Notes: generated from the sequence alone by a model not told the origin. A DNA stretch of 64,000 bases from Polyangiales bacterium (GCA_041389885.1 JAWKRB010000006.1:195101-259100), one strand, 5' to 3'. Positions 9,211 through 63,524 are shown, counted from the first letter of the stretch. A program made the numbers and translations.

Positions 9211-9839
9211 TGGGGGCGTGCGGCGCCGAGTGCGGCATCACGCGGCAGCGCGACCGAGAGCGTGAGGTCGCGAGGCGCGTCGCGCGCGCGGTGTGGCCGG
9301 AGGGTCGACGCGCGGCGTCGGGCGCCCTCCGCGGCCTGGGCGTCGACCCCGAGCGGGTGAGCGCGCTCGCGGCTCGGCTCGTCGAGACCCTCCCCGTCGC
9401 CGTGCTCGAGGAGCCCGAAGAGCCCGACCGCGCACCGTCGATCTACTGCATCGCCACCGTCGCGGACGAGACCTGGGTCGGCTTTCGCTGCGGGCGCAGC
9501 CCGAGGCCCGCGCACCGCGTCGAACTCGGGCTCCGCGTGGCCTTCTCGCCCTTCGGTCCGTACGCGACGCTTCAGGAAGTGCATCTCGAAGCAGACGTCG
9601 ACGACGAGGGTGTCTGGATCGAGGAGCGCCGGCTCGCGGGGGTCGAGGACCGTCGCATGCAGCACCTGGTGCGCGGGGTTCAGGGCGCCCTCCGCAAGGC
9701 CCGAGTCACGGCGCTCGACGCGGCCTTCCTCGCGGAGCCGTTCGGCGACGGCACCCTGTGGTCGGCGCTCTTCGACGCCGAGCCCGCGGTCGCGACCCGC
9801 GGGGACTACCTGCCCGCGGGGGCGCCTCCCGCGCCCTGA
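9210..9839 (+). CDS. Hypothetical protein, translationally coupled to the coiled-coil gene
   Basis: 209-aa ORF whose start overlaps the upstream stop (ctgATGg). Composition looks like coding sequence. No recognisable domain. Confidence 0.55.
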   Translation: MGACGAECGITRQRDREREVARRVARAVWPEGRRAASGALRGLGVDPERVSALAARLVETLPVAVLEEPEEPDRAPSIYCIATVADETWVGFRCGRSPRPAHRVELGLRVAFSPFGPYATLQEVHLEADVDDEGVWIEERRLAGVEDRRMQHLVRGVQGALRKARVTALDAAFLAEPFGDGTLWSALFDAEPAVATRGDYLPAGAPPAP

Positions 9840-11457: not shown

Positions 11458-14400
11458 ATGTCGCGCGCGATCTCGAGACCCACCTTCGCCCTCTGCGCGC
11501 TGATCACCACGCTCCTCGACGGGTGCACCTTCGGGACGGCGATCGTGGGCGGCGACGCGAGCGGCGACCTCGGCGTGTTCGACGCGACCGTCGACCTCGG
11601 CTCGAAGCTCGACGCCGCCGAGGCCTCGCCCGCCGACGTCCCGGTCGTCGAAGACCTCGCGCCCGACGTCCCCGACGCGCCTTCGCCCGAGTGCCTGCGC
11701 AACGCCGACTGCCTCGACCCGAGCCGCCCGGTGTGCGACCTCGGCGCGAACCGCTGCGTCCAGTGCCTCCCGTCTCCCGACACCTGCCCCACGCGGAGGT
11801 TCTGCGACCCCGGCACGCTCACGTGCCAGGACGGCTGCCGCGGCGATCAAGACTGCGTGCTCAGCAGCTCCGGGGGCGACGGGGGGCTCGTGGTGCGGGT
11901 CTGCGACCTCAGCCGGCGCATCTGCGTCGCGTGCCGGGGCGACGCCGAGTGCCCCGCGGGGACCCAGTGCGCCGGCGGCCTCTGCGCGCCCTCCTGCGGG
12001 GGAGGGCGGGCCTGCCTCCCCAGCGAGACCTGCTGCGCCGGCGCGTGCGTCGACCTGCGAGAGAACGACGCGAACTGCGGCGCGTGCGGCGCCTCGTGCG
12101 CGGCGCCCAACGCCGCCGGGCGCTGCCGCGCGGGGCGCTGCGAGGTGGGCTCGTGCATCGGCGCCTTCGGCGACTGCGACGGCGACGCCTCCAACGGCTG
12201 CGAGACGAGCCTTCGCTCGGCCACCGACTGCGGCGCCTGCCGCTCCGCGTGCCCCGTGCGACCCTTCGCGGCGACGGTGTGCGACACGGCCTCGGCGACC
12301 TGCGCGCTGCGCTGCGACCCCTCACGAGCCGACTGCAACCTCGTCGCCGACGACGGCTGCGAGGTCGACGTGCGCGAGAGCGTCGACCACTGCGGCGCGT
12401 GCGGCCGCGCGTGCGCCGCGGCCCACGGCACCGCGCGCTGCGACGAGGGGCGGTGCGCCATCGCCTCGTGCGAGGCGGGGTTCTCCGACTGCGACGGCGA
12501 CCCGCTCAACGGGTGCGAGGTCGACACCCGCGCGAGCGCGGCGCACTGCGGCGCGTGCGGATCGCGCTGCGCCGCAGGGGCGAACGCGTCGGCCCAGTGC
12601 CGCGACGGCGGGTGCCAGGTGAGCTGCGAGGCGGGCTTCGCCGACTGCGACGGGCGCGTCGACGACGGCTGCGAGACCGACCTGCGCGCCTCGACGGAGC
12701 ACTGCGGGGCCTGCGGCGCTGGGTGCGTCGCGCAGGGCGGCGTCGCGCGCTGCGCCTCGGGGCGCTGCGAGATCGCGAGCTGCGAGGCGGGCTTCGCCGA
12801 CTGCAACGGGCGCGTCGACGACGGCTGCGAGACCGACCTGCGCAGCAGCGCGACCGCGTGCGGCGCGTGCGGGGTGCGGTGCCCGGGGTCGCAGCGGTGC
12901 GCGCGGGGAGCGTGCGTGCTCGAGTGCCCGGTCTCGCAGCAGGTGTGCTCCGGCGCGTGCGTCGACCGGCTCACCGACCCGCGCAACTGCGGCGGCTGCG
13001 GGAGCGTGTGCGCCTCGAACACGCGCTGCGTCGCCGGGGAGTGCAGCCTCGACTGCGCCGCGGGCCTCGCGGCCTGCGACGGACGCTGCGAGAACCTCCT
13101 CACCTCTGCCGCGAATTGCGGCGGCTGCGGCGTGGCCTGTCCGGCGCGACCGGGCGCGACGCCGACGTGCCAGGGCGGCCTCTGCGGCAGGTCGTGCCTG
13201 CCCGGCCGCGCGGACTGCGACGGGGTGGCGAGCAACGGCTGCGAGGTCGACCTGCGCGCCGACGCGAGCAGCTGCGGCACCTGCGGCTTTCGCTGCGTGG
13301 TGGCCAACGGCGTGGGCGCGTGCGTGAACGGGGGCTGCGGCATCGCGGCCTGCGCCGCGGGGTTCGCAGACTGCGACGGCGCCGCCTCGGACGGCTGCGA
13401 GACGCCCGTTCGCCGCGACGACCGCAACTGCGGGGCGTGTGGGAACGTCTGCGCGACCGGGACCTCGTGCGTGGACGGGGCCTGCGTTCCGCCCCCCGGC
13501 TCGCTCTTCGTCGACGCGCCGACGGTGATCAACACCATCGCCGCGGCGGCTCAGGCAGGCGCGGGTTCCCTCACGGTCACCCTGGGCTCGCCGGTGGGTG
13601 TGTTCCTCCCGGGCCAGCGGGTGATGCTGCACCAGACCCAGGGGCCCGAGGGCGTCGCCGGTCGGTACGAACTACGGCGCGTGGCCGCGGTGCAGGGCGC
13701 GCTGCTCACCCTCGACGCGCCGCTCTCGAACGCCTACGTGAGCGCGGGGAACTCCCGCGCGCAGATCCTCGTGGTGCCCGAGTACTCCAGGGTCACCGTC
13801 ACCGCGAGGGGGACCCTGACCGCGCCCCCCTGGGACGGTCGCGCGGGCGGGGTGCTGGCGGTCTGGTCGCGGGGGGACGTCGACGTGCTCGGGCGGGTCA
13901 GCATGGACGGTCGGGGCTTTCGGGGCACCCAGCACGGCTGCGCCCTCGGGCGGCTCTTTCAGTGCTCCGTCGGGGTGCAGGGCGAGTCGTTCCTCGGGCC
14001 TGGGCGCGCGTCGGTCTTGGCCAACGGCGGAGGCGGGGGCGGCGGCTCTTCGGGGCAGGACTGCGCCGCTGGAGGGGGAGGCGCCAACGGCGCGAGCGGT
14101 CGCGTAGGGACGAGCGGCGATTGCAACGGCGGCTCGATCGGCGAGTGCACCTCGGTGTGCCCCAACGTGGGCGGCGACGGAGGCGCGGCTCCGCGCAGAG
14201 ACCCCCTCGGGGGGCTCGCGCACCTGGGCGGCGCGGGCGGCGAAGGCGGCGCGGATGAGGACGGGGCCTTCCCTGGCGCGGGAGGCAACGGCGGCGGCTT
14301 CGTCTGGATCCGCGCCGAAGGGGCGCTCACCGTCAGCGGCACGGTCTCTTCGAGCGGGGCCGACGGGCGCAACGGCAACCAGTCCGACTGCGGCGGCCAG

Positions 14401-14640
14401 GGGTGCGGAATGGGCGGCGGCGGAGGCGGCGCGGGAGGCTCCATCCGCTTCGATGTGGACGGGGCCGCGATGTTGGGCGATGGAAGGGTGCTTGCGGTCG
14501 GTGGGACCGGGGGGCTGTGCTCCTGTCGCATCATCGACCTGTCCCGCGCCGCGCCTGGCGGCGGTGGTGGTGGCGGGCGGGTCGCCGTGCGCGCCCAGCG
14601 CGTCGTCGGGCAGACCTTCCCGACGGCGGAGCAAGAGTAG
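11458..14640 (+). CDS. Large lipoprotein with ~10 tandem cysteine-rich repeat modules and a Gly-rich C-terminal region
   Basis: Lipoprotein signal (MSRAISRPTFALCALITTLLDGC) with a GGAGGG Shine-Dalgarno sequence upstream. Carries repeated ~50-aa modules (CGACGxxC...GRC...SCEAGFADCDGxxDDGCETDLR). The C-terminal 350 aa are Gly-rich (GGGGGGGSSG..., GGAGGEGG). The upstream part of ORF 11239.. is read-through. Confidence 0.8.
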   Translation: MSRAISRPTFALCALITTLLDGCTFGTAIVGGDASGDLGVFDATVDLGSKLDAAEASPADVPVVEDLAPDVPDAPSPECLRNADCLDPSRPVCDLGANRCVQCLPSPDTCPTRRFCDPGTLTCQDGCRGDQDCVLSSSGGDGGLVVRVCDLSRRICVACRGDAECPAGTQCAGGLCAPSCGGGRACLPSETCCAGACVDLRENDANCGACGASCAAPNAAGRCRAGRCEVGSCIGAFGDCDGDASNGCETSLRSATDCGACRSACPVRPFAATVCDTASATCALRCDPSRADCNLVADDGCEVDVRESVDHCGACGRACAAAHGTARCDEGRCAIASCEAGFSDCDGDPLNGCEVDTRASAAHCGACGSRCAAGANASAQCRDGGCQVSCEAGFADCDGRVDDGCETDLRASTEHCGACGAGCVAQGGVARCASGRCEIASCEAGFADCNGRVDDGCETDLRSSATACGACGVRCPGSQRCARGACVLECPVSQQVCSGACVDRLTDPRNCGGCGSVCASNTRCVAGECSLDCAAGLAACDGRCENLLTSAANCGGCGVACPARPGATPTCQGGLCGRSCLPGRADCDGVASNGCEVDLRADASSCGTCGFRCVVANGVGACVNGGCGIAACAAGFADCDGAASDGCETPVRRDDRNCGACGNVCATGTSCVDGACVPPPGSLFVDAPTVINTIAAAAQAGAGSLTVTLGSPVGVFLPGQRVMLHQTQGPEGVAGRYELRRVAAVQGALLTLDAPLSNAYVSAGNSRAQILVVPEYSRVTVTARGTLTAPPWDGRAGGVLAVWSRGDVDVLGRVSMDGRGFRGTQHGCALGRLFQCSVGVQGESFLGPGRASVLANGGGGGGGSSGQDCAAGGGGANGASGRVGTSGDCNGGSIGECTSVCPNVGGDGGAAPRRDPLGGLAHLGGAGGEGGADEDGAFPGAGGNGGGFVWIRAEGALTVSGTVSSSGADGRNGNQSDCGGQGCGMGGGGGGAGGSIRFDVDGAAMLGDGRVLAVGGTGGLCSCRIIDLSRAAPGGGGGGGRVAVRAQRVVGQTFPTAEQE

Positions 14641-14677
14641 CCTGCGGGGTTCGCGTTTCGAATGCGAGGACAGCGAC

Positions 14678-17011
14678 ATGACGGAGCGGAATGATTCCAG
14701 CGGCGGCGACTCGGGGGCCCCCCCCGCTCGAGAGTTCGAGCAGGGCGACAAGGTCCTCGATCGATGCACGGTAGACCGTTGCGTTCGGCGAGACCGACTC
14801 GCCTCGTTCAACACCGCACGCGGCGACGGACCCGAGGGAGAGGGGCTCTTCACGGTGTGGTCGGTGCACGCCGGCATCGTGCACCGCTCCGAGCGCGCCT
14901 CGACGGTCTTCTTCGATGAGATGGCGTCGACGAGCGCCCTGAACCACGCCTCGATCCCCGCCGTGGTCGCCTTCGACCCCATGGCCCCGGGTCCCGTCGT
15001 CATCGCGCGCTTCGTGCAGGGCGTCTACCTGCGCGACCGCCTCGCGGACGGGGAGCTCCTGAACACGCGCGAGGTCTCTCGCATCGTGCTCGCCGTCGCC
15101 GACGCCCTCGCGGTGCTCCACCGCGCGAGCCCTCCGGTGTTTCACCGCGCGGTCACCCCCGAGCGCGTGCTCAGCGCGGGCGAGACCGTCTTTCTCGAGG
15201 AGTGCGGGTACCTCCACGCCGTCGTCTCCGCGGGCATGCTCAGCGAGAAGGAGCTGGAGACCTTCGCGCAGCCCGGATACCGCCTGCCGAGCCGGGTCTC
15301 CTCCGCGGGCGGCGCGGCGATCGACCGGTTTCAGCTGGCGGTGCTCGCCTTCGAGGCCCTCACCGGGCAGCTGCCCTTCGGCGCCGCGACCGTCGCCGAG
15401 CTCGACGACCTGACCCAGCGCGCGCCCTCGGCCCGCGGCGCGCGGCCGACGCTCCCGGCGGAGATCGACGAGGTCTTTCGCCGCGCCTGGAGCCCCTCGG
15501 CCGCGGACCGCTACGCCACCACCACCGAGTTCGCCGCCGACCTCGCGCGGGTGCTCGAGCCTCGAGACTCGGTGCCCCTCGGCGAGCTGAAGCCCGACGT
15601 CGCCGCGACGATCTTCTCCAGCCCCTCCCAGCGTCCGGAGGTCGCCGACGAGATCGACCGCGCGCTCGACGCGGCGCTGGGCGAGCCCCGCTCGGAGCCC
15701 TCGCCCGCGCAGCGAAAGATCGACGTGGAGCGGCTGCTCCCGATGGTGAGTGCGGCGCTGCAGGCGAACGAGCGCACCTCGTCGGTGCCGCCTGAGCGAC
15801 GCAGCGGCATGGAGCTCCCGCCCCTCTCACGCGCGCTGGACCTGCCGCCGTCGAAGCCCACGCTCCTCGGCGCCGCGACCGGCAGCGCCAAGGGCTCCGC
15901 GCCGTTCAAGATCCGTCCCGCGTCGGTCGCGGCGCCGACGAAGCCCGAAGCCCCACCCCCCGCGGAGGCGCCCGAGCCTGGCTCGCGAGAGAGCCGCCCC
16001 CTCGACCTCACCGAAGAGGCCGAGCTGCAGGAGCGGCAGTCCCAGCTCGAGCTGGCTTCAGACCCGGGCGACCGCTCGGTGGTCGAGCTCGATGAGGCGC
16101 TCCTCGAGCCCTCGACCACGAACACGAACCTCCAGCGGATCATGGATGAGATCGCGTCGTTTCGTCCGTCGGAGCGCTCGCCGATGCTCGAGGAGGAGGA
16201 GCTGATCCGCTTCGGCGATCCCCTCGACGACGGGGTGACCCGCGCGGGACAGGACGAAGAGCTCGTGCGCGGGGAGCTCGCCGGGGCGGGGCGTTCTGGC
16301 GATTCGCCGGCCTCGAGCCCGCCGGTCCACGTGGGGACGATCCGCGCCCCGGTGGCGCCGCCCCAGAGCCTTCAGGCGAAGAAGACACCGCTGCCGCCCC
16401 TGCCTCCGCTCGAAGGCGGCGTCGGTCGGGGTACGCCTCTCTCCTCGATCGCGCCGCTTGGCCGAGGAAAGCCCACCACGCTGCCCCCCGACGACGCGGG
16501 GGATCACCCGGGCTCGGGCGCGCACGAGGTCGTCGTGCCTCGACCTCCCGTCTCGCGGTCGGGCTACGGCAAGGCGGCGGGACTGCCGACGACGACGCCC
16601 CCGCCGACGCGGCTCAACACGCCGATTCCGATGGGCGCGCGACCGGCCCGCCGCTCGGTGCCGCCAGGGACGGTCTCGCGGCCCGCGGCCAGCGCTCCCC
16701 CGGTGGACGAGGCGCCTCGGTCGGAGCCGGCGAAGGTCGAGCAGGCCGTGGCGCTCTCGCGAGAGCCCGACGCGCTCGCGCAGGTGGCGCCGACGGTCGC
16801 CAAGCTCACGGCGCTCGCGTCGCTGATCGCGACGGTGGGGCTGATCTTCGCGGCGCGGCAGCTCGACGCGTACATGGCCGACCCTGGGGTACTCCGTGCG
16901 GGAGCTGCGCGCGGAGCCGCTGCTCCGGCGCCCGACGCGGGCATGGCGGTCGACGATCTCGGCGGGGGCCGTTCCTCGGCGAACGCGACGACGCCTCGGT
17001 CGAGCTCATGA
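14678..17011 (+). CDS. Membrane-anchored Ser/Thr pseudokinase-domain protein with a long Pro-rich disordered region
   Basis: Starts at MTERNDSSGG. Kinase fold with a degenerate catalytic loop (FHRAVTPERVL in place of HRDLKPEN), no DFG motif, and a conserved alpha-F/G region (DRFQLAVLAFEALTGQLPFG). Followed by ~350 aa of P/E/S-rich low complexity and a C-terminal TM segment (VAKLTALASLIATVGLIFAARQL). Confidence 0.7.
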   Translation: MTERNDSSGGDSGAPPAREFEQGDKVLDRCTVDRCVRRDRLASFNTARGDGPEGEGLFTVWSVHAGIVHRSERASTVFFDEMASTSALNHASIPAVVAFDPMAPGPVVIARFVQGVYLRDRLADGELLNTREVSRIVLAVADALAVLHRASPPVFHRAVTPERVLSAGETVFLEECGYLHAVVSAGMLSEKELETFAQPGYRLPSRVSSAGGAAIDRFQLAVLAFEALTGQLPFGAATVAELDDLTQRAPSARGARPTLPAEIDEVFRRAWSPSAADRYATTTEFAADLARVLEPRDSVPLGELKPDVAATIFSSPSQRPEVADEIDRALDAALGEPRSEPSPAQRKIDVERLLPMVSAALQANERTSSVPPERRSGMELPPLSRALDLPPSKPTLLGAATGSAKGSAPFKIRPASVAAPTKPEAPPPAEAPEPGSRESRPLDLTEEAELQERQSQLELASDPGDRSVVELDEALLEPSTTNTNLQRIMDEIASFRPSERSPMLEEEELIRFGDPLDDGVTRAGQDEELVRGELAGAGRSGDSPASSPPVHVGTIRAPVAPPQSLQAKKTPLPPLPPLEGGVGRGTPLSSIAPLGRGKPTTLPPDDAGDHPGSGAHEVVVPRPPVSRSGYGKAAGLPTTTPPPTRLNTPIPMGARPARRSVPPGTVSRPAASAPPVDEAPRSEPAKVEQAVALSREPDALAQVAPTVAKLTALASLIATVGLIFAARQLDAYMADPGVLRAGAARGAAAPAPDAGMAVDDLGGGRSSANATTPRSSS

Positions 17012-21109: not shown

Positions 21110-21400
21110 TCACTGCTCGATCACGCCGAGGATGTCTTCCTCGCGAATGATCAGATGCTCGACCTCTTCGATCTTGACCTCGGTGCCCGAGTACTTGCCG
21201 AAGAGGATCTTGTCGCCGGGCTTGACCTCGAGCGCGCGCACCTTGCCGTCGTCGCCGACCTTGCCATTGCCCACGGCGATGACCTGGCCCTCGATGGGCT
21301 TCTCCTTCGCGGAGTCGGGGATGTAGAGGCCACCCTTGGTGCGGGTCTCGGCCTCGAGGCGCTTGACGAGGATGCGATCCTGGAGCGGGCGAATCTTCAT
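21110..21400 (-). CDS. groES: Co-chaperonin GroES
   Basis: [46 protein letters not shown]; 96 aa. Confidence 0.97.
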
Positions 21401-21610
21401 TTCCGGTTCCCTCTACCTGTGCGGCCTGGCCGTTGCGCGGCGCCGCAGTTGATGCGACACAACCCCCCGGCGACAGGACCCTTCCTGCCCCCGGTCAGCC
21501 GGTGTCATGACCCCGCCACCCCTCAGCCGTGCCCCCGGCGGAACACCGCGCGGGGAGACGCCGCCTGACGGGAGGTGGCGCCGGAACGACTCGAGGGTAG
21601 ACAACGATTC

Positions 21611-21637
21611 CTGGCACTCTCGTTCGGAGAGTGCCAG
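21611..21637. promoter_or_regulatory. CIRCE element (HrcA operator) upstream of groES-groEL, copy 1
   Basis: Inverted repeat CTGGCACTC-TCGTTCGGA-GAGTGCCAG, compared with the consensus TTAGCACTC-N9-GAGTGCTAA. It matches at 7 of 9 positions in each arm. Confidence 0.8.
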
Positions 21638-21729
21638 CAACGGCGCGCAACATAGTCAGCGGTCCTGACCTGTCAAGGCGCCCTCTGCACGCTCTGTCAC
21701 CGCGCGAGTTCTTTTTTGACTTCGCCGCG

Positions 21730-21756
21730 TTGGCAGCCTCGTTCGCAGAGTGCCAG
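21730..21756. promoter_or_regulatory. CIRCE-like element, copy 2 (less perfect)
   Basis: TTGGCAGCC-TCGTTCGCA-GAGTGCCAG. It shares the spacer TCGTTCG(G/C)A with copy 1. Confidence 0.6.
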
Positions 21757-21884
21757 GCGCCGCTCGGCCCTCGTCTGGCGCCTCCCTCGGGAGGGGAGAG
21801 TCAGCGAATTGTGCGCGCTCGGGGTCGTCCTAGACTCAGGGGGTGGCGAGCGAGCCGGCGCTCGTCGGAGAGGAGTCGATGTGA

Positions 21885-22466
21885 ATGAAGGTCGAAGCCT
21901 GTCATGACCTGAGAGCGTTCTTTCGTCAGCAACTCACCCTGGCGCTCACCCGCCGCCGCATCGACGCGCGGCCCGAGACCGAGGCCTACATCGCCGGGGT
22001 GCTCGTCGACTGCGGGATGCAGCCGCCGCGCCTCGACCGTCCCCTGGTGGTCGCCCTCAACGAGGCCCTCGCGTGCGAGAGCGCCCTGCGCACCGTGCGG
22101 CTCATGCGCACGGGAGACGCCGCGCTCTGCCTCGCGGGGCTCTTCGCGCCGCACGTCGAGCGCACCGTGGGCAGCCTGGGGCTCTACATTCACCTCGGGT
22201 CGATGGCCTACCAGCGCGCGGCCGACGCGTCGCGCGGCGACGCCTCGCCGCCCGCCCCCGTCGATACCCTGGCCGAGCTGGGCGAGGGCTTTCCGCGCTT
22301 CGTCGACGCGCTGCACGAGGTCGCTGAGTCGAGCGCGTTGGGCGCGGTGACGCGCGACGTGGTGCGGCTCTACGACCGACTGCGCGCCGCCGGGTCGGAG
22401 CGGGCGGCGGAGGAGATGGCGAGGCAGGGCTTGTTCCCCGCGCCGGGCGCGAAGGGGACGTGCTGA
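21885..22466 (+). CDS. Hypothetical protein
   Basis: 193-aa ORF divergent from groES, with a coding-like composition. No family recognised. Confidence 0.45.
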   Translation: MKVEACHDLRAFFRQQLTLALTRRRIDARPETEAYIAGVLVDCGMQPPRLDRPLVVALNEALACESALRTVRLMRTGDAALCLAGLFAPHVERTVGSLGLYIHLGSMAYQRAADASRGDASPPAPVDTLAELGEGFPRFVDALHEVAESSALGAVTRDVVRLYDRLRAAGSERAAEEMARQGLFPAPGAKGTC

Positions 22467-22491
22467 GCTTGCACGCGGAGAGGGCGAGCGC

Positions 22492-22740
22492 TCAGCCGAA
22501 GCGGCGCTTCTGATCGGCGATGTACTGGTCCACGGCCTCGCGGGACGGGCGGTCGAAGTGGACCTTGCTCGCGGCGATCTCGCGCAGGGCCAGCACGGCG
22601 GGCTTGTTGCGGTAGCGACCGCCGTCGAGCTGGACCTTCGCGCCCTTCATGATCTGACGGGTGCGGGTCGCGGCGAGGACCACCATCGCGAAGCGGTTCT
22701 CTTCCTTGTCGAGGCAATCTTCTACGGTCACGCGAGCCAT
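22492..22740 (-). CDS. rpoZ: DNA-directed RNA polymerase subunit omega
   Basis: Internal start [30 protein letters not shown], which is an RpoZ signature. 82 aa. Confidence 0.85.
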
Positions 22741-22798
22741 GAGGGACCTCCTTGAAGGGGGCGGGACCATACCGCATCCCGCCGAGCGCACGCAACGC

Positions 22799-24799
22799 TC
22801 AGGTCGGTTCGCCCTCGTTGGCGGAGCGGTTCAGGTTGAGGATCTTCGCTCCGCCCACGTAGTCCTGCGTCTCGTAGCGCTGCACCGAGCCCAGCCGACG
22901 GACGATCAGCGCCATGCGCTCGGCCTCGCGGAGGATCACCTCGGCGGCGCGGCCGATCGCCACCGGGTCGTGGGTGCAGCGCCCGATGAGCTCGGCGTAG
23001 CCCTGCACCGCCGTCAGTGGCTGGTTGAGCTCGTGCGCCGCCGCCCCCGCGACCTCGCCGACGACCGCCTGACGCTCGCCGACCGCGAGCTCCTCCTGCG
23101 CCTTGGCGAGCCGCCCCTCGAGCCGGAGCCGCTCTCTCAGGTCTGAGAAGATCCCCACCGTGGCGCCCTGGGGGTCGCTCACCAGGGCGACGGAGAGCTG
23201 CACCGGGATCCGCTCGCCGCTGCGGGAGATCACCTCGGTGCGCACGCCTTCGAGGTTGCCGTGGGGGGAGGCTCGCAGCCTCGCCATGATGTCCCGCGCG
23301 GCGCCGGCGGGGTACAGGGTCTTCACCAACCGCCGCCCGATCATCTCCTCGCGGGAGTACCCGAGCACCCGCTCGGCGGCCCGGTTGAACAGCAGCACGC
23401 TGCCGTCTCGGGCGCCCGCGATGATCGCGTCGGGGGAGCTCTCGATCAACGACGAGAGGAACTCCTTGGTGCGCGCGAGCTCGCGGGCCGTCGCCCGGTC
23501 GTCGGTCACGTCGCGAAAGGTCAGCAGCACGGCGTGGTTCTCGCGCAGCAGCGACGCGGTCGAGACCGACAGCGTGCGCACCGCGCCGTCGCGGCGACGG
23601 ACGCGAACGTCGGTGTCGGCGGGGAAGCGCCGCGCGCGAAACCCCTGCCGCAGGGCCCTCGCCAGGCCGCGGTCCTCGGGCGCGACGATGAAGTGCGCGA
23701 AGGCGCCCCGCAGGTCGGCGTCGGCGTACCCGGTGATCTCCGCGGCGCGCGGGTTCGCGAACAGCACCCGACCGTTCGGGTCGACCACCACCATGCCGTC
23801 GGCCGCCGAGACGAAGAGGTCGGCGTAGCGCTCCAGGAGCCGGGCGCGGTGCTCGGCCTCCAGCCGCGCGTCGGTCACGGCCTGGCTCTGCTCGCGCAGG
23901 CGCTGCATCTCGTTCGCGTTGCGGAGCGCGACGCCGGTCGCGTTGGCGATCACCTCGCAGAGCGAAGACTCGCGATGGTCGAGGGGCCCCCGGCGCCCCC
24001 GACCCCGGAGCACGAGCACCCCGTGCACGCTGCCGTCGCAGAGGATCGGCAGGAGGGTCAGCGAGGTGAGCTGCACCCCCGCGAGGTGCGCGCGCACGCC
24101 GTCGAGGAGGGGGTGGCTGGCCACGTCGTGAATCACCAGCGGCGCGCCGCGGCGGAGCACCTGCTGCACCTCGGGGTAGCGATCGAGCTCCACCGGGTGG
24201 TTGTGCAGGTCGGCGTCGTCGCTCGCCGCGACCACGTAGCCGGTGCGCTCGCCCACCTGACCGACGACGATCGAGCAGCTCTCGACCCTCACCAGCTCCG
24301 CCACGCGGCGCACGACCGTGGACAGAATCTCCCGCGGATCGAGGCGCGAGGCGAGGGTGCGCGTGAGCTCCACCATCGCCTGCGCGTCGCGCTCCTTCGA
24401 CGCGAGCTCATGGACATACGAGCGCAGGCGAAGCTGCGCGCGGATGCGGGCGAGGAGCTCAGGCCGTCGGCAGGGCTTGCGGAGGAAGTCGTCGGCTCCG
24501 GCGGCGAAGACCCGCTCGACCTCGGCGTCGTCTTCGAGCGCGGTGAGCACGATCACCGGGAGGTCTCGGGTGGCGTCGTGGGCCCGCAGCACGTTCAGCA
24601 CCGCGTAGCCGTCGCTGGGCGGCAGCACGAGGTCGAGGATCATCACCCCCGGCGGCGACTCGAGGGCCGACGCGATGGCCTCGTCGGCGCGGGCGAAGGA
24701 CGAGACCCGGTAACCAACGCGGGCGAGCCAGCCGCCGATCAGACGACGGGTGACCGCGTCGTCGTCGACCAGCAGAATCCTTGGCCCCTCGTCTCCCAT
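22799..24799 (-). CDS. Response-regulator receiver / GAF / PAS / PAS / HisKA protein lacking an HATPase_c domain
   Basis: REC domain ([14 protein letters not shown]...[12 protein letters not shown]...DFLRKP), a GAF-like middle, two PAS-like segments, and an H-box ([18 protein letters not shown]). The protein ends ~60 aa after the H-box with no N/G1/G2 boxes. Confidence 0.8.
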
Positions 24800-24836
24800 G
24801 CTCGACGCGCAGCGTATCCCGCGTTGGTTCTGGCGA

Positions 24837-26138
24837 TCAACGCGTTCGGGCGTCGCGCGTCCACCACGCGCTGAGGGCCTCGGTGTGGACCGTGCGCACC
24901 GCGACGCCCGCGCGGGCGGCGAGGTCGCGGCACACGTCCCACTCGGGCTGCGCGCTCGGGGCGATGCCGTCGCCGTCGGCGACCTTCACCGGGACCTTGC
25001 CGTAGCGCGTCTCGACCTCGTCGACCCGCCGGGGGCGCTCGATGCGGTGCACAGGACGCCAGCGCAGCCCGAGCGAGCTGCTCTCGCCGAGGAGGAGCTT
25101 CCCGATGCGGTCCTCCTCGCCGCGGCGCACGAGGGCCGAGACCATCACGCCCGGTCGACCCTTCTTCATGCCGACCGGGGTGGTCCAGGCGTCGAGGGCG
25201 CCGTCGCGCAGGAGCCGGTCGGTCACGTGCGCCGAGAGCTGCCCCGTCACGTCATCCAGGTTCGACTCAAGCACGACGTGAGACCCCATCGTCTGGTCCT
25301 CGCCCGCGCGCGCCGCGTCGACGTCGCCGAGCACCAGCCGCACCATGTTGGGGCGATCGGGGAGCTGCCGCGTCCCGGCGCCGAAGCCCGTCGCCACCGG
25401 GCGCATCGAGGGCCAGCGGGTGAACTCCGCGGCGTTCGCCTTCACCAGGCACGCGCCCGTCGGGGTGACCAGCTCTACGTCGACCGCCGCCGCCTCGGTC
25501 GGAACCCCCTGGAGGATCTCCACCACCGCCGGCGCCGGGAGCGGCAGCACCCCATGCGCCGCTCGCACGAAGCCTCGCCCCATCGGCAGCGGCGCGCAGG
25601 TCACCCGCGCCCCCAGCCAGTCGAGGGCCGCGCTCGCCGCCACGATGTCGACGATCGCGTCGACGGCGCCGACCTCGTGAAAGTGAACGTCCTCGACGGA
25701 GATGCGATGCACCCGGGCCTCGGCCACGGCGAGCACGCGAAACGCGTCCTGCGCCCTGCGGCGAACGCCCTCGAGGAGCTCGGCCGACTCGAGCATCGCC
25801 TTGATCTCGCGGTACGTCCGGTGGGGCTGCGCGCCGCTCACCCGCACGTGAAAGCGGGTCGCGGCGACGCTGCTCACCATCGTCGGCGAGGTGCCCACCT
25901 CGAAGCCCGTCAGCGACAGGCTGCTCAGCGCCCGGTGAATCGGCGCGAGGGGGACGCCGAGGTCGATCAGCGCGGCCACGAGCATGTCGCCCGCCACGCC
26001 GCTGAAGCAGTCGATGTGAAGCACCCGGCCCACGCCGAAGCCGTGCGAGAGCTCCGCCCGTGGCGGAGCGTCAGCGTGCGGGCCGTGCGCGTGGCCGTGC
26101 GCGTGGCCGTGATCGTGGTGCGAGTCGCCGTGCGGCAT
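24837..26138 (-). CDS. larC: LarC-family (DUF111) nickel-insertion protein with a His-rich N-terminus
   Basis: Starts MPHGDSHHDHGHAHGHAHGPHAD and contains the LarC N-terminal motif HIDCFSGVAGDMLVAALIDLGVP. 433 aa. The upstream part of ORF 24837..28193 is antisense artefact. Confidence 0.8.
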   Translation of the reverse strand: MPHGDSHHDHGHAHGHAHGPHADAPPRAELSHGFGVGRVLHIDCFSGVAGDMLVAALIDLGVPLAPIHRALSSLSLTGFEVGTSPTMVSSVAATRFHVRVSGAQPHRTYREIKAMLESAELLEGVRRRAQDAFRVLAVAEARVHRISVEDVHFHEVGAVDAIVDIVAASAALDWLGARVTCAPLPMGRGFVRAAHGVLPLPAPAVVEILQGVPTEAAAVDVELVTPTGACLVKANAAEFTRWPSMRPVATGFGAGTRQLPDRPNMVRLVLGDVDAARAGEDQTMGSHVVLESNLDDVTGQLSAHVTDRLLRDGALDAWTTPVGMKKGRPGVMVSALVRRGEEDRIGKLLLGESSSLGLRWRPVHRIERPRRVDEVETRYGKVPVKVADGDGIAPSAQPEWDVCRDLAARAGVAVRTVHTEALSAWWTRDARTR

Positions 26139-26612
26139 GGGGAAGGTCTCCGTGACTGAAGCGCCCTCGCCGCAGGGACTCCAAGGTCGTGCAGACCCAG
26201 AGCGACAAGCGAGGCTTGGACCGTCGGAATACGCAATGCCGCTCGCTCGCGTCAACGACCCGAGACGAAACCCCTCGCGCCTCGCGCGCTCCCGAGAGCG
26301 CCGAGCGCGCACATTTTTTTCCGTGGCGGCGGGAGGGGCGCGCCAGTATGCTCCTGCGAGGCTCCGACGGCCTGTGCCCTCCGCTTGTTTGCGGAGGCTC
26401 CAAGGGGCGGCTTCAGGGCACCCCAGAGGGTGCTGGTCGCGGGATGCGCATGGCAACGGGTGCGGCGTGAAGGTGAATAACCAGGAACTGCCCGAGGGGT
26501 TGGAGATCGAAGGGGCGATTCCCCCTCGCGCTGCGCAGCGGCTGCGCCCCGGGGGGCCTCCCCGGCTCGCGCCGCTCACGGGCGTTCTCATGACCGACCC
26601 CACGGCGCCCTG

Positions 26613-27824
26613 GTGATTCGCCGCGTGCGGGTTCGCGTGACCAGCGGACCCGATCGAGGGCGCGAGGCCCTGCTCGAGGCGGGCACCCTGCTCGTCGGCA
26701 CCCACACCGACAACGACCTCATCCTTCGCGACCCGCAGGTGGGCAAGTACCACCTCGAAATCGCGCTCGTCGCGGGCGGAATTCGAGTGCGCGACCTCGG
26801 CTCGGAGAGCGGCACCTTCGTCAACGCCGCCAGGCTCTCCGCGGGCGTCGTCGCCGTCGGCACCGAGATCTCCATCGGCCGAAGCACCCTGCAGCTCCTG
26901 GTGGGCGACCTGACGGTGACGATCCAGCCCAGCGAGCGACCCTCCTTCGGGCCGGTGGCGGGGCAGTCGGTGGCGATGCGAATGCTCTTCGCCGTGCTCG
27001 AGCGCATCGCGGCGACCGACACGCCGATCCTCCTCGAGGGAGACGCCGGCACCGGGCGCACGCTCATCGCCAAGGCCGTGCACGCCGCGTCGCGCTTCGC
27101 GGCTTCTCCCGTGACGGCGGTCGACCTCCGTCTGCCCACCTCCGAGCGCCCGTCGCTCACGCAGATCTCCCAGCGCTCCGACACCTTCACGCTGCTGCTC
27201 GAGCGCATCGACGAGGCGAGCAACGCCGACATGACCGCGCTGCTCTCGATCTACGAGCGCCGAGAGGAGGGCGTGCTCGACGCCAGAATCCTCGCCACCT
27301 GCTCCGCGGACATCAAGCGCGCCGCCGCCGAGGGGCGGTTTCGGCGCGACCTCGCGAACCACGTCGCCGCCGTGAGGCTCCAGGTGCCGCCCCTCGCCGA
27401 GCGAACTGAAGACATCCCCGTGCTCATCCGGCAGTTCGCGCGCGAGATCTGCGGGGCTGATCCCGAGTTTCGCGACGAGGATTTCGCCCGGGCCATCGCG
27501 CGCAGCTACCCCGGCAACGTGCGCGAGCTTCGCGGCCTGGTCGTGAAGGCGCTGCAGGTCGAGGCGGCTCCGCCCACGCTCCCCAAGGCGGGCATCGCCC
27601 GCGCGCGCGCGGCGCTGGTCATGCCTCTGAACGCCCGGCCCAAGCCGCCGCCGCCCCGGGTCGCGCGCGACCGCATCGTCGAGTTCTTTGAGCGAGATCA
27701 CCTTCAGTCCATGTACAACCGCATGGGCGGAGAGCTGAACGAGATCGCGCGGGAGCTCGACCTGCCGCGCAAAGAGGTCGTTCGGCTGCTGAAGCAGCAC
27801 GGCGTTCAGGTCGCCGAGAAGTGA
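26613..27824 (+). CDS. FHA-domain transcriptional regulator with a degenerate sigma-54-interaction (AAA+) domain and a C-terminal Fis-type HTH
   Basis: N-terminal FHA-like region (LLVGTHTDNDLILRDPQVGKYHLEIA...GSESGTFVNAARL), a Walker-A-like GDAGTGRTLIAKAVH without a GAFTGA motif, and a C-terminal HTH (LNEIARELDLPRKEVVRLLKQHGV). Confidence 0.75.
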   Translation: MIRRVRVRVTSGPDRGREALLEAGTLLVGTHTDNDLILRDPQVGKYHLEIALVAGGIRVRDLGSESGTFVNAARLSAGVVAVGTEISIGRSTLQLLVGDLTVTIQPSERPSFGPVAGQSVAMRMLFAVLERIAATDTPILLEGDAGTGRTLIAKAVHAASRFAASPVTAVDLRLPTSERPSLTQISQRSDTFTLLLERIDEASNADMTALLSIYERREEGVLDARILATCSADIKRAAAEGRFRRDLANHVAAVRLQVPPLAERTEDIPVLIRQFAREICGADPEFRDEDFARAIARSYPGNVRELRGLVVKALQVEAAPPTLPKAGIARARAALVMPLNARPKPPPPRVARDRIVEFFERDHLQSMYNRMGGELNEIARELDLPRKEVVRLLKQHGVQVAEK

Positions 27825-28741
27825 TCCCAGCCCTGAGGGCTGACCTCGGTGAGGCGGGACGCGTCGCGTAGATAGACCCCGGCGCCCTCGAGCACCTCGC
27901 CGACCAGGGTCCAGCGCGCGTCGAAGGCCGAGGCGGGGCCCGTCGCGAGCAGCTCGTAGTCTTCGCCGCCGTGGAGCGTCGCGTCGAGGGCCTCGTCGGC
28001 CGTTGCGTACGGGTGCAGCCGAAGGGCGTCGCGGTCGAAGACCACGCGGGCTCCCGACGCCTCGGCGAGGCGCGCGGCGTCGAGGGCGAGGCCGTCGGAG
28101 ACGTCGATGCACGCGGTGGCTCGGCCGCTCAGGACCGCGCTCAGGTCGACGCGGGCGAGGGGGTGGCGCCAGCGGTCCACGGCCTCCCGCCACCGCGGGT
28201 CGGGATCGCCCCGGAGCAGCGCGCGCAGGCCCAGCGCCGCGGCCCCGACCGGCCCGCTGATCGCGACGCGATCACCCGCGCGCGCGCCGCCGCGGAGGAG
28301 CGGCGCGTGAGCGGCCCGGCCCAGCACCGTGGTGCTGAGCGAGAGCTCGACGCCGGCGGAGAGGTTGCCCCCGACCACCCGCGTGCCCACCCGACGAGCC
28401 GCGCGCAGGGCCCCCCTCGCGAGCAGGAGGAAGTCCTCGTCGGAGAGCGCGGGCGGGAGGGTCCAGGAGAGCAGCAGGCCGCAGCCAGGGCCGTCGAGGG
28501 AGGCGCCCATCGCCGCGATGTCGCTCATGGCGGCCTCGCACGCTCGGGCCGAGGCGTCTTCGAGCGTGAGCAGGTCGCGGCGAAAGTGAACGCCCTCGAC
28601 CGCGGCGTCGACGGTCGCGACGAGGGGGCGCGGGTCGACGAGCACGGCGGCGTCGTCTCCGACGCCTAGAGAAGGCGCCTCGGCGGCGCCGAACAGCGCT
28701 CGGAGCAGGGCGAGGCGCTCCCGCTCGCTCGAGCGGCTCAC
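27806..28741 (-). CDS. thiL: Thiamine-monophosphate kinase
   Basis: AIR-synthase-related fold with LGVGDDAAVLV and the ThiL length (311 aa). Confidence 0.8.
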   Translation of the reverse strand: MSRSSERERLALLRALFGAAEAPSLGVGDDAAVLVDPRPLVATVDAAVEGVHFRRDLLTLEDASARACEAAMSDIAAMGASLDGPGCGLLLSWTLPPALSDEDFLLLARGALRAARRVGTRVVGGNLSAGVELSLSTTVLGRAAHAPLLRGGARAGDRVAISGPVGAAALGLRALLRGDPDPRWREAVDRWRHPLARVDLSAVLSGRATACIDVSDGLALDAARLAEASGARVVFDRDALRLHPYATADEALDATLHGGEDYELLATGPASAFDARWTLVGEVLEGAGVYLRDASRLTEVSPQGWDHFSAT

Positions 28742-29157
28742 GACGACCGACCGCCGAGTCTCCGCCAGGGGATCAGCAGCACCACCGCGAGCTCAAAGGC
28801 GAAGACCCAGGGCTGCGCGAGCTCGGGTCGCTGGAGGATCTTCGCGACCACCGGGGTCGCGATCCAGAGGCACGCGAGCGCGGCGGCGGCGAGGAGGTAG
28901 TTCGTCTTGGGGGCCATGGGGGTGTGACGGTCGGGGCTCAGCGTCGCCAGCGCGGCGCCGAGCACCCGCTGAAGCCCCTTGGAGGCCTCGGCCCCTCGCT
29001 CGGGGTCGTCGCGCAGCGCGCGGTAGCGCCCCGCGGCGTCGGGGAGGCGGTCGAGGGCGGCGGCGAGGGCGACGAAGGCGCGGTGCTGCTCGTCGAGGTC
29101 CCACTTCTCCTGGAGGGCGATCCAGGCCTGCTCGATCGGGTCTTGGGCTTCGCTCAT
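28738..29157 (-). CDS. Small hypothetical membrane protein
   Basis: Internal start MSEAQDPIEQAWIALQEKW and a C-terminal TM segment (YLLAAAALACLWIATPVVA). The stop overlaps the thiL start. The rest of ORF 28738..30024 is antisense to rsmH. Confidence 0.45.
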   Translation of the reverse strand: MSEAQDPIEQAWIALQEKWDLDEQHRAFVALAAALDRLPDAAGRYRALRDDPERGAEASKGLQRVLGAALATLSPDRHTPMAPKTNYLLAAAALACLWIATPVVAKILQRPELAQPWVFAFELAVVLLIPWRRLGGRSS

Positions 29158-29274
29158 CGCGCGTGGGATTTCGGTCACAGTCCTGGCCGCCGCGCAATCG
29201 GGGCGGCCGGGCGCCGCCGATTCTTTGACCGGCCCATCGGATCGTGACGATAGGAGCCTGGAGCCGCACACGCG

Positions 29275-30165
29275 ATGGAACCCTTGCGCCACGAGACCGT
29301 TCTGCTGGACGAGGTGATCCGAGGGCTCGACCTCAGGCCGGGCGCCTTCGCCGCCGACGTCACCACCGGGCTCGGGGGGCACGCCGAGGCGATCCTTCGC
29401 GAGACCTCCCCCGACGGCGCGCTCCTCGCCCTCGACCGGGACCCCTACGCCCTGACGCGGGCGGGCGAGCGACTCGCGGCCTTCGGCGACCGGGTGCGCT
29501 TTCACCAGGGGCCCTTCTCCGAGCTCCGCGACGTGCTGCAGGGGCGGCGCCTCGACGCGCTCGTGGCCGACCTCGGGGTCTCGTCTCCGCAGATCGACGA
29601 CCCCGAGCGCGGCATGAGCTTTCGCGCCGAGGGGCCTCTGGACATGCGCATGGGCCCCGACGCCGACGACACCGCGTGGTCGGTGGTGCGTGAGCTGCGA
29701 GAGGCCCAGCTCGCAGACGTGATCTACCAGTTCGGCGAGGAGCGCGCGTCGCGGCCCATCGCGCGCTCGATCAAGCGCGCCATCGACGAGGGCGCGATGG
29801 AGACCACGAAGGACCTCGCGCGGGCGGTCTACCGGGTGCTCGGCCCCCCGCGATTCGGCAAGCTCGACCCCGCGACGCGCACGTTTCAGGCGCTGCGCAT
29901 CTCGGTCAACGACGAGCTCGGTGAGGTGCAGCGGCTCCTCGCGTCGCTCCCCGAGGTGCTCGCGGACGACGGTCGCGTCGCGGTGATCTCGTTTCACTCG
30001 CTCGAAGACCGGCTCGTGAAGCACGCCTTTCGAGGCGACGCCGCGCTGGAGCCGTTGACCCGAAAGCCCGTCGAGCCGAGCGAGGCTGAGCTCGAGAGAA
30101 ACCCGCGGTCGCGCAGCGCGCGGCTGAGGGTGGCCCGTCGTCGACCGAGAACGGAGGTCCCGTGA
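29275..30165 (+). CDS. rsmH: 16S rRNA (cytosine1402-N4)-methyltransferase RsmH (MraW)
   Basis: MEPLRHETVLLDEVIRGLDLRPGAFAADVTTGLGGHAEAIL...FHSLEDRLVK. Confidence 0.95.
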   Translation: MEPLRHETVLLDEVIRGLDLRPGAFAADVTTGLGGHAEAILRETSPDGALLALDRDPYALTRAGERLAAFGDRVRFHQGPFSELRDVLQGRRLDALVADLGVSSPQIDDPERGMSFRAEGPLDMRMGPDADDTAWSVVRELREAQLADVIYQFGEERASRPIARSIKRAIDEGAMETTKDLARAVYRVLGPPRFGKLDPATRTFQALRISVNDELGEVQRLLASLPEVLADDGRVAVISFHSLEDRLVKHAFRGDAALEPLTRKPVEPSEAELERNPRSRSARLRVARRRPRTEVP

Positions 30166-44655: not shown

Positions 44656-44671
44656 GGTCCCGTCCAGGAGG

Positions 44672-46289: not shown

Positions 46290-46372
46290 CGTGACTCTCA
46301 GCGTCGTAGGATGCTCTCCGCGCGCCCTGCGCGGCAAGCGCTCCACACTCTCCAGGGCTGATGCGATCGCGC

Positions 46373-46747
46373 TCAATGGGGCTGACCAGGGCTACGCCTG
46401 CTGCGCCGATCCTGGATTTGCGCCTCGCCGATGCCGCGCTCTCGCCGCGCGCGCAGGCACTCGTCGCTGCCCGCCTCGACCCGCCGGCACGCCGCGGGTC
46501 GCAGCGCGTAGAGCTCGCAGCGCACCGAGCGACCGAGGCTGCCGCGGAGCCCGGCGCACCGCTGCCCGGCGTCGAGGCGGAGGTGCGCTCGCCCCTCTCC
46601 GTCGAACCTCACGTACCGCGCCACCGCCTGCGGATGACGCAGGATCGCGTCACGCGGCGTCACCTCGACGTAGGCCTCGGTGCCCTCGGCGCGGTTCTCG
46701 TCGGGGTTGCAGCAGCAGGCGCCGCACCGGGTGCAGTCGAGCGACAT
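46373..46747 (-). CDS. YkgJ-family (UPF0153) CxxCxxCC metal-binding protein
   Basis: MSLDCTRCGACCCNPDENR...; 124 aa. Confidence 0.7.
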   Translation of the reverse strand: MSLDCTRCGACCCNPDENRAEGTEAYVEVTPRDAILRHPQAVARYVRFDGEGRAHLRLDAGQRCAGLRGSLGRSVRCELYALRPAACRRVEAGSDECLRARRERGIGEAQIQDRRSRRSPGQPH

Positions 46748-63462: not shown

Positions 63463-63524
63463 CGTGCAACCTCCGTGGGACGGGAGCGCCTCCCGTCGGC
63501 GGCGGTAGTGTACCGTCTCGCGCC

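Follow-up and report, generated by a model that had tools for sequence, protein, structure and literature searches.

A 64,000-nucleotide stretch of DNA from a Polyangiales bacterium (GCA_041389885.1 JAWKRB010000006.1:195101-259100), referred to here as the window, carries between positions 22,799 and 27,824 three genes: larC, for the nickel-pincer cofactor cyclometallase, a gene for a 666-residue signalling protein with the domain order REC-GAF-PAS-PAS-HisKA, and, in the opposite orientation, a gene for a regulator that combines an FHA domain, a degenerate AAA+ core and a Fis-type helix-turn-helix (HTH). An initial annotation of this region had joined the three genes into a metal- or redox-linked signalling module. 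The comparison with related loci indicates instead that the region is probably a reduced version of a locus specific to a clade of Polyangiales, and not one purpose-built module. With similar confidence we favour a reading in which LarC is canonical and its pathway genes are dispersed, the regulator is tied to the lar genes, and the link of the REC-DHp(HisKA) protein to them is positional. The single-module reading is unsupported because the partner of the REC-DHp protein is a kinase, the partners of LarC are the products of larB and larE, and the present layout is the outcome of gene losses in one clade. The main features of the locus are the following:

24837..26138, minus strand: larC, full-length nickel-pincer cofactor cyclometallase, 433 residues (Pfam PF01969 and NCBIfam)
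22799..24799, minus strand: gene for the REC-GAF-PAS-PAS-DHp(HisKA) protein, 666 residues (Pfam domains)
26613..27824, plus strand: main open reading frame (ORF) of the FHA / degenerate AAA+ / Fis-type HTH regulator, 403 residues (Pfam)
26139..26466, no strand assigned: divergent intergenic region between larC and the FHA regulator, 328 bp (DNA alignments with relatives)

The contexts of the REC-HisKA gene were examined in three genome or metagenome loci obtained by exact look-up and in 80 metagenome loci. A gene for a kinase of approx. 430 residues, with both HisKA and HATPase_c domains, directly follows the REC-HisKA gene in 69 of the 81 loci that are not linked to lar genes; it lies on the same strand, usually no more than 250 nt away, and in most of the 12 exceptions the sequence ends downstream. 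The gene ruvB is found upstream in 37 of these loci, from which larC is absent, and the kinase, ruvB or both stand beside the REC-HisKA gene in 74 of the 81. Therefore, the conserved partner of this gene is the downstream kinase, which leaves the proposed module of three genes unsupported; furthermore, nothing ties the sensor domains of the 666-residue protein to metal or redox. The co-occurrence of larC and the REC-HisKA gene in relatives, raised in the initial annotation, holds within the lar-linked lineage and fails in the 74 loci just mentioned. In a neighbour-joining tree, the REC-HisKA genes that are linked to larC and rpoZ form one basal lineage, and in one of its members (L085) the REC-HisKA gene and rpoZ are still separated by a PAS-HisKA-HATPase_c gene. 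The core of this kinase is 40-47% identical to the downstream kinases of the other lineages, versus 26-30% for an unrelated kinase. In the window and in L001, L003, L086 and L166, rpoZ follows 58-117 nt after the REC-HisKA gene; in the window it begins 58 nt 3' of the REC-HisKA stop codon on the same strand, and the comparison with L085 indicates that it fills the slot occupied in relatives by the partner kinase. No other unit of DHp and CA domains was detected in the 64-kb window with a kinase-core hidden Markov model (HMM) or by tblastn with five kinases, and no remnant of the partner kinase was found in the intergenic DNA of the window. From these results it is proposed that the partner kinase gene was lost from the lineage of the window. 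A split ATPase partner, which according to the initial annotation would speak against the module, thus exists in relatives, including the lar-linked L085, and is missing from the window itself.

Two other candidates for the missing partner were rejected: a 159-aa ORF that occupies the partner-kinase position in L084 is unrelated to kinases, and the PocR-HisKA-HATPase kinase located by thiL in L168 and L169 shows only 26-30% identity to the partner kinases and is absent from the window. The REC-GAF-PAS-PAS-DHp protein and its kinase, as found in L081-L165 (for instance L081:10001-13378 and L082:10001-13430), form a highly conserved two-gene unit that is apparently an uncharacterised signalling pair of the Myxococcota.

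The 666-residue protein has the following parts, all encoded on the minus strand:

24440-24778, minus strand: REC domain, residues 8-120 (PF00072)
23924-24343, minus strand: GAF domain, residues 153-292 (Pfam)
23129-23836, minus strand: two PAS domains, residues 322-557 (Pfam)
22892-23056, minus strand: HisKA domain, residues 582-636 (PF00512)
23033..23035, minus strand: codon of His589, the phospho-accepting His of the H-box HELNQPLT (translation; the column is invariant in the alignment)
22802-22891, minus strand: 30-residue C-terminal tail, residues 637-666, RYETxxYVGxAxIL(D/N)L (family alignment)

The pocket of the receiver is complete (D12, D13, D14, D56, T86 and K108). As first described, the protein has the HELNQPL H-box and no ATPase domain: a Pfam search gave no match to HATPase_c (PF02518) and just 30 residues follow the DHp domain, while rpoZ, 58 nt downstream, leaves no room for a frameshifted ATPase domain after the gene. 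HATPase_c was likewise found in 0 of 120 homologues of this protein, a family of at least 120 members with 50-93% identity, nearly all of them full length. Because the domain is absent from the protein and from these homologues, the 666-residue protein is, judged from its sequence, not a kinase, and the earlier view that it is limited to a phosphotransfer or phosphatase role is borne out by the missing ATPase domain. In an alignment of 18 diverse members of the family, no variation occurs at His589, in ELNQPLT or in the tail motif RYETxxYVGxAxIL, and Asp56 and the acidic pocket of the receiver are kept in at least 90% of them; the gene has a ratio of nonsynonymous to synonymous substitution rates (dN/dS) of 0.123. 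The tail that follows the DHp domain could provide a strand on which a partner kinase or a receiver docks.

In HisKA domains, the H-E-x-x-N arrangement supports phosphatase activity. Since the phosphorylatable Asp and His and the HExxN motif are kept and the kinase partner is lost, the protein is read as a relay, a sink or a phosphatase. It would be a kinase-less phosphorelay component, with Asp56 and His589 intact, that could accept, pass on and remove phosphoryl groups and would be unable to make them from ATP; in the window it would need phosphoryl groups from a kinase whose gene lies at another site, or would serve mostly as phosphatase or sink. Known kinase-less DHp phosphotransfer proteins are Spo0B of Bacillus, ChpT of Caulobacter and RedE of Myxococcus xanthus, which likewise have a DHp hairpin with a phosphorylatable His and no working ATP-binding domain, and act as relay or phosphatase between receivers. 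The 666-residue protein differs from them in that it has a true Pfam HisKA domain with HExxN and no remnant resembling a CA domain, in that it also contains REC, GAF and two PAS domains, and in that a complete kinase is encoded next to it in most genomes. A search of the literature on kinase-less HisKA proteins in myxobacteria gave nothing useful.

On the other hand, the three genes lie side by side, or almost so, in every lar-linked locus of sufficient length (the window, L001-L003, L084, L085, L166 and L169). Moreover, larC, the REC-HisKA gene and rpoZ lie on the same strand with short gaps, and no terminator-like site was found from larC to rpoZ. The spacer between larC and the REC-HisKA gene is 37 nt (24800-24836), so that the short same-strand gap of the initial annotation is confirmed and its length of 38 nt is corrected. 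GAF and PAS domains often bind small ligands, and on these grounds it could be argued that the GAF/PAS protein senses LarC or the nickel status and passes the signal to the FHA regulator, as a single metal or redox module would require. We consider this unlikely, given that the REC-HisKA gene is paired with other genes where larC is absent, that larC and the REC-HisKA gene are set apart by other genes in L168 and L169, that LarC elsewhere goes with larB and larE and not with signalling genes, that no phospho-acceptor joins the DHp protein to an FHA regulator devoid of a receiver, and that the sensor domains yielded no motif for metal binding or redox. The position of the REC-HisKA gene between larC and rpoZ would rather reflect inherited gene order and possibly co-transcription, with no nickel-related function indicated.

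The larC gene is a single uninterrupted ORF, in which the LarC1 part spans approx. residues 40-270 and the LarC2 part approx. residues 288-404. Its product covers Pfam PF01969 (Ni_insertion) in full (positions 1-375 of 375, E 8e-127, 424 bits), and scores 197 bits against NCBIfam TIGR00299 (LarC1, cutoff 90) and 121 bits against NF052512 (LarC2, cutoff 50). It is 40% identical (E 3e-83) to the LarC protein of M. thermoacetica (LarC_Mt), for which a full-length structure has been solved (PDB 12bi), and shares with it the LarC1 and LarC2 architecture, the His cluster (H108/H116/H118/H160) and the acidic pocket (D15/R71/E104/E119/D124/D128/E187). A 2026 paper on the structure of LarC lists the residues whose substitution cripples activity (PMC13510736), and all 11 of these, which make up the His cluster of LarC1 and the acidic pocket, are kept in the LarC of the window. 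From LarC_Mt to the window the corresponding residues are D15 and D51, R71 and R107, E104 and E140, H108 and H144, H116 and H152, H118 and H154, E119 and E155, D124 and D160, D128 and D164, H160 and H195, and E187 and E222; the same 11 residues are present in every relative with a locus that lacks larB. In contrast with LarC_Mt, the LarC of the window shows the changes H53S, Y180E, H226R, N238D and Q241R in the interdomain cleft, it carries an extra His-rich N-terminal tail, and larB and larE are not nearby. The gene has a dN/dS of 0.039 against its closest relative, L166 (dS 0.36). Taken together, these comparisons lead us to conclude that LarC is an ordinary, standard member of a known family, and its product is expected to be a normal, active CTP-dependent nickel cyclometallase.

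In L. plantarum, LarC1 and LarC2 are connected by a programmed frameshift (PMC13510736), in contrast to the one ORF of the window. A match to the ribosomal frameshift element weev_FSE inside larC (25431-25457, minus strand) was below the threshold of Rfam (30.9 bits versus a gathering score of 40, E 0.078) and was treated as noise; given that larC is a single uninterrupted ORF, this match is most likely due to chance.

The absence of larA, larB and larE from the locus, as first noted, was confirmed with HMMs that we built from the genes neighbouring larC in 80 genomes: no match to any of the three was detected within the 64-kb window, even at E<=10, and no remnant of larB was found in its intergenic DNA. 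In the deeper relatives L168, L169 and L171 the FHA regulator is divergent from larB-larC, the order being FHA regulator, then, divergently, larB, larC, a gene for an LTD-domain protein in some cases, the REC-HisKA gene and rpoZ; at the other larC loci of the Myxococcota in the genome set, larB is adjacent in 7 of 7. The loci without larB form a clade that comprises the window, L001-L003, L084, L085 and L166. Since larB adjoins larC in the deeper relatives, it follows that this clade lost larB from the locus, and by this comparison the larC gene of the window is a leftover of a larB-larC operon and its local orphan state is secondary. Other genes that the outgroup loci carry and the window does not are seen in L168:3635-7777 and L169:3736-7668, i.e., larB and the gene for the LTD-domain protein, a product of 526-528 residues encoded between larC and the REC-HisKA gene. 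Likewise, in L168, L169 and L171 a gene for a PocR-HisKA-HATPase_c kinase, overlapping thiL, lies beside thiL or the FHA regulator and has been lost in the window. Compared with these outgroups, the locus of the window looks reduced.

Lone larC loci are common and not unusual, as larA, larB and larE are all missing within 10 kb from 13 of the 37 larC loci that have at least 9 kb of sequence on both sides. A published survey reported that 2,108 of 11,067 LarC homologues have LarB and LarE, and lack LarA, within 20 ORFs; in Haloferax, larB, larC and larE are located at separate sites, and LarA homologues have been reported in 80-100% of the species of Myxococcota. The lone loci, the case of Haloferax and the presence of LarA in the Myxococcota make a dispersed lar pathway plausible, in which P2TMN, the substrate of LarC, would have to come from the products of larB and larE genes encoded elsewhere. 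It could also be considered that LarC is a true orphan, i.e., that larB and perhaps larE were lost and that LarC was retained for nickel insertion into another substrate, or for nickel storage or delivery by means of the His-rich tail. The deletion of larB from the ancestral operon, the failure to assign a LarB of intermediate similarity to the clade of the window, and the strong purifying selection on a larC gene with a complete active site are all consistent with this idea. Nevertheless, it seems to us quite unlikely: the P2TCD pocket is kept in its entirety, as is the LarC2 domain that binds CTP, which speaks for the known substrate; lar genes are often dispersed; and a LarB of approx. 60% identity would hide among hundreds of matches from other phyla.

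The His-rich start described in the initial annotation is indeed present at the N terminus of this otherwise intact LarC:

26070..26138, minus strand: His-rich N-terminal tail of LarC, MPHGDSHHDHGHAHGHAHGPHAD (read from the sequence)

This tail contains 9 His among its 23 residues. Across the clade the tails vary in length and composition: that of L001 (L001:~9824-10000) consists of approx. 50 residues of HD/HP repeats, that of L085 is HDHDHDHDHGHDHG, that of L004 includes seven consecutive His, and that of L003 is poor in His. These differences suggest that the repeat expands and contracts rapidly, and such variability would fit an appendage that captures metal with low specificity. Low-complexity, His-rich metal-binding tails are borne by the nickel metallochaperones HypB, UreE, SlyD and CooJ. 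The tail of LarC resembles them as a His/Asp-rich terminal tract of variable length on a nickel-handling protein; it differs in that the putative metal-binding tract is located on a cyclometallase, and not on a GTPase or chaperone. By analogy, the tail of LarC probably captures or stores nickel.

The regulator is the partner for which the comparative data do favour a functional connection with lar. Its domains, in the main ORF, are the following:

26634-26897, plus strand: FHA domain, residues 8-95 (PF00498, 43 bits; PF16697, Yop-YscD_cpl, 61 bits)
26958-27395, plus strand: AAA+ core (Sigma54_activ_2 full length; Sigma54_activat partial)
27039-27062, plus strand: Walker A motif, GDAGTGRT (motif analysis)
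27399-27554, plus strand: AAA+ lid (AAA_lid_14)
~27675-27806, plus strand: Fis-type HTH (alignment to the C terminus of NtrX)

Of the 168 positions of the PF00158 (Sigma54_activat) profile, the regulator matches only 2-57. Among proteins of solved structure, its best relatives are NtrX from Brucella (5m7n, E 6e-25) and VpsR from Vibrio cholerae (7v2b, E 2e-21); residues ~355-398 of the regulator align to the C-terminal HTH of this NtrX and, in the NCBIfam NtrX profile, as far as the last position. The GAFTGA (L1) loop is deleted: in the alignment with ZraR, ELFGHEKGAFTGA is replaced by PTSERPSLTQIS, and the family alignment agrees; both L1 and L2 regions are deleted in every displayed orthologue. 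The Walker A motif GDAGTGR and the missing GAFTGA are thus as the initial annotation reported them. Among 63 orthologous clusters with 49-97% identity, the Lys of Walker A is replaced by Arg (GxGR) in 52, while Walker B (LLLERIDEAS) is retained, with its Asp present in 62 and its Glu in 47. Homologues with 37-43% identity, including the one from Sandaracinus, lack GAFTGA and keep the Lys of Walker A. The Ser of the SxxH motif and the Asn of the NG motif are conserved residues of the phosphothreonine (pThr) pocket of FHA domains. In the regulator of the window they are replaced by Gly44 and Ser66; in its orthologues the Ser position is occupied by G, S or A and the Asn position by G, S or T (with one A and one N), whereas both residues are kept in 39 of 39 canonical relatives, i.e., enhancer-binding proteins with an FHA domain (FHA-EBPs). 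These canonical FHA-EBPs of the Myxococcota have the same order of three domains and are homologous to the regulator at 33-36% identity, and they keep GETGTGKE, GSFTGA, the L2 insertion and the Ser and Asn of the FHA pocket, all of which the family of the window regulator has lost. In spite of these losses the regulator gene has a dN/dS of 0.041.

The regulator is unlikely to engage sigma-54, as already suspected in the initial annotation, given the absence of GAFTGA, the replacement of the Walker A Lys by Arg, and the absence of a -24/-12 promoter from the divergent region. For the latter, no site was found in 26139-26612 with TGGCAC-N5-TTGCW and up to 2 mismatches, a pattern that occurs at 6 sites in the whole window versus 13 expected by chance. 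NtrX and VpsR act with the sigma-70 holoenzyme and not with sigma-54. The regulator shares with them an AAA+ fold of the sigma-54 type without GAFTGA and a C-terminal Fis-type HTH; it differs in having an FHA domain instead of a receiver at its N terminus, in the Arg that replaces the Walker A Lys, in the deletion of L1 and L2, and in the replaced FHA Ser and Asn, so that the resemblance is one of mechanism only.

The regulator is divergent from larC or from larB-larC in all 10 loci inspected, and this pairing spans 54-97% regulator identity where measured (61% in L168, 54% in L169). Furthermore, it has outlasted the comings and goings of thiL (lost in L171), the PocR kinase and larB. A divergent pairing that is conserved in this way is typical of regulators and the genes they act on, and from it we infer control, independent of sigma-54, over the transcription of lar, of the regulator itself, or of both. 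Thus, of the links that made up the proposed module, that of the regulator with lar is supported, as divergent neighbours, and the three-gene unit is not; the comparative data favour it as the one functional connection of the locus, and the FHA protein is plausibly a sigma-54-independent regulator of the lar genes. According to this proposal, an EBP derivative that lost GAFTGA, the L2 insertion, the Walker A Lys and two canonical residues of the FHA pThr pocket would most likely bind the shared 328-bp region through its Fis-type HTH, as the conserved divergent pairing suggests, and once bound would control the transcription of lar, its own, or both, in the manner of NtrX and VpsR.

The divergent arrangement was correctly described in the initial annotation; the length of 470 bp given for the intergenic region becomes 474 bp when measured between ORF ends, and 328 bp in its ancestral state. 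The half of this region proximal to the regulator (~26305-26466) is a conserved non-coding block with ~98% identity to L166 and ~90% to L001. Synonymous divergence in the flanking genes is 0.36-0.57, so that the block is more conserved than synonymous sites. Within it are a run of seven T, a TATGCT box that is invariant, and two inverted repeats at ~26379-26398 and ~26418-26433, CCTCCGC-N6-GCGGAGG and GCACCC-N4-GGGTGC; in L001 their spacers differ and their arms are kept. A structured RNA was considered as an explanation and found to be unsupported (fold z = -0.37, and no covariation among four sequences), and no match to a riboswitch or other known RNA in Rfam was above threshold in 21300-29400. 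Operator sites are the more likely reading of this block when compared with an RNA structure.

The difference between the two lengths is explained by the 5' end of the regulator gene:

26467..26616, plus strand: ancestral 5' end of the regulator gene (MKVNNQELPEG...LMTD), now out of frame (orthologues and DNA alignments)

Orthologues of the regulator have approx. 450 residues (452-453 in P0121, P0122 and P0128) and start with MKVN or MKVV, and the ancestral start corresponds to GTG 26467, located 146 nt upstream of the 403-aa ORF. In comparison with L001, L166 and L167, one A is missing at 26601/26602, a deletion unique to the window; the first 49 codons are thereby put out of frame and run into TGA 26614-26616, a stop that overlaps GTG 26613. 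When the A is restored, a regulator ORF of 452 residues is obtained. The differences from L166 in this leader fall at third codon positions, indicating that it is truly coding, and re-initiation at GTG 26613 could still yield the 403-residue protein. The frameshift is either a very recent lesion or an assembly error. A second apparent frameshift, at ~62100-62130, favours the latter: the ORFs 61224-62132 and 61840-63534 (minus strand) appear to be a FAD_binding_3/OYE-type fusion split near 62110, in which the Oxidored_FMN (OYE) profile is itself divided, positions 2-66 ending the FAD_binding_3 ORF and positions 62-337 lying in the next frame. This second case hints at indel errors of the assembly or at real pseudogenes. 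The lost leader of the regulator contains a conserved TGVLxTD motif, also found in Sandaracinus.

The 1-nt deletion that splits the regulator gene, together with the loss of larB, the partner kinase, the LTD gene and the PocR kinase from the locus, could suggest that the missing ATPase domain, the degenerate AAA+ and FHA motifs and the lone larC are pseudogene-like remnants. This explanation is extremely unlikely and is largely refuted by the data on selection and conservation. The three genes are under purifying selection, with dN/dS of 0.04-0.12 at unsaturated dS of ~0.36-0.44 (comparisons with distant relatives, in which dS was saturated, were set aside), and the architectures that appear degenerate are conserved across 60-120 protein clusters. 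In addition, the frameshift is unique to the sequence of the window and left a GTG that overlaps the new stop codon, and the second apparent frameshift suggests indel errors of the assembly.

A different possibility is that no functional link exists among the three genes, and that they are kept together only by the conserved block that runs from the dcw cluster and thiL to rpoZ and groESL. The order of the housekeeping flanks is conserved in all lar-linked relatives, and the regulator homologue from Sandaracinus, with 38% identity, has no lar neighbours, as expected under this explanation. However, the pairing of the regulator with lar survives the loss of thiL in L171, the gain and loss of the PocR kinase and the loss of larB, and the shared intergenic block is more constrained than synonymous sites; therefore, passive synteny is given a fairly low probability.

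Several observations weigh against the reading that we prefer, i.e., a canonical LarC with dispersed pathway genes, a regulator tied to lar and a REC-DHp gene placed there by inherited order. The relation between the regulator and its target has conserved divergent adjacency as its sole basis, and that adjacency sits in conserved housekeeping synteny (dcw cluster, thiL, rpoZ and groESL); moreover, the frameshifted regulator may be impaired in the window. Wherever the sequence of a lar-linked locus extends far enough, the REC-DHp gene adjoins larC or is no more than ~5 kb away, leaving room for a functional tie to lar. Finally, the closest LarB homologues, with at least 63% identity to the outgroup LarB, all appear to lie in loci of the clade that keeps larB (a placement seen directly for L168, L169 and L171 and deduced for the others), and none of these close homologues could be assigned to the clade of the window, so that a real loss of larB has to be considered. 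A real larB loss combined with a fully equipped LarC that stands beside a dedicated, triply degenerate FHA/AAA+/HTH regulator is quite improbable in our estimation. If true, the loss would imply another route to the LarC substrate, a different substrate, or a role of LarC outside the LarB-LarE-LarC pathway, and with a dedicated regulator, that of the FHA family, nickel-pincer cofactor genes would for the first time be connected to a transcription factor.

LarC aside, which is ordinary, the locus is notable for two uncharacterised protein families; the parts, i.e., the two families of signalling proteins, are moderately novel, and their integration into a metal or redox module is not supported. 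The kinase-less REC-GAF-PAS-PAS-DHp family is widespread in the Myxococcota, almost always with a partner kinase and here without it, which makes the protein of the window a natural experiment on a DHp domain after removal of its kinase. The FHA/AAA+/HTH family has lost the sigma-54 loop, the Walker A Lys and the pThr-pocket residues, and yet it is strongly conserved beside the lar genes. To our knowledge, no dedicated regulator of nickel-pincer cofactor biosynthesis is known; if the FHA protein controls the lar genes, it would be the first regulator linked to this pathway. Current understanding is not overturned by these results, which supply testable candidates.

The closest genome matches of the window, which has a G+C content of ~73%, are uncultured Polyangiales (Myxococcota); compared with a metagenome-assembled genome from this order, LarC is 83% and GroEL 96% identical. 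Exact-sequence look-ups with LarC and the 666-residue protein found no record. The gene order is groEL, groES, a gene for a 193-residue hypothetical protein, rpoZ, the 666-residue signalling gene, larC, the divergent FHA regulator, thiL and the dcw cluster, which includes rsmH, ftsL, ftsI and murE; these housekeeping flanks keep the same order in all lar-linked relatives. The immediate neighbours are:

22492..22740, minus strand: rpoZ, omega subunit of RNA polymerase (Pfam RNA_pol_Rpb6)
27806..28741, minus strand: thiL, thiamine-phosphate kinase (NCBIfam TIGR01379, 205 bits, cutoff 184)

The latter is a flanking housekeeping gene of conserved synteny, convergent with the FHA regulator, whose end it overlaps. 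The 193-residue protein (21885-22466, plus strand) is without a match in Pfam or NCBIfam, and is encoded between rpoZ and groES in all lar-linked relatives with 42-70% identity. The sole strong match to a sigma-70-like promoter in 21300-29300, TTGACA-16-TATGTT (21649-21676, minus strand), precedes groES and is presumably the groESL promoter. Elsewhere in the window, an ORF at 44391-46391 (minus strand) encodes a Ser/Thr protein kinase (Pkinase, E 1e-44), and the stretch 14108-17011 (plus strand) gives a weak kinase-like match only; Ser/Thr kinases of the window could feed FHA proteins, but the FHA domain of the regulator has lost its pocket residues.

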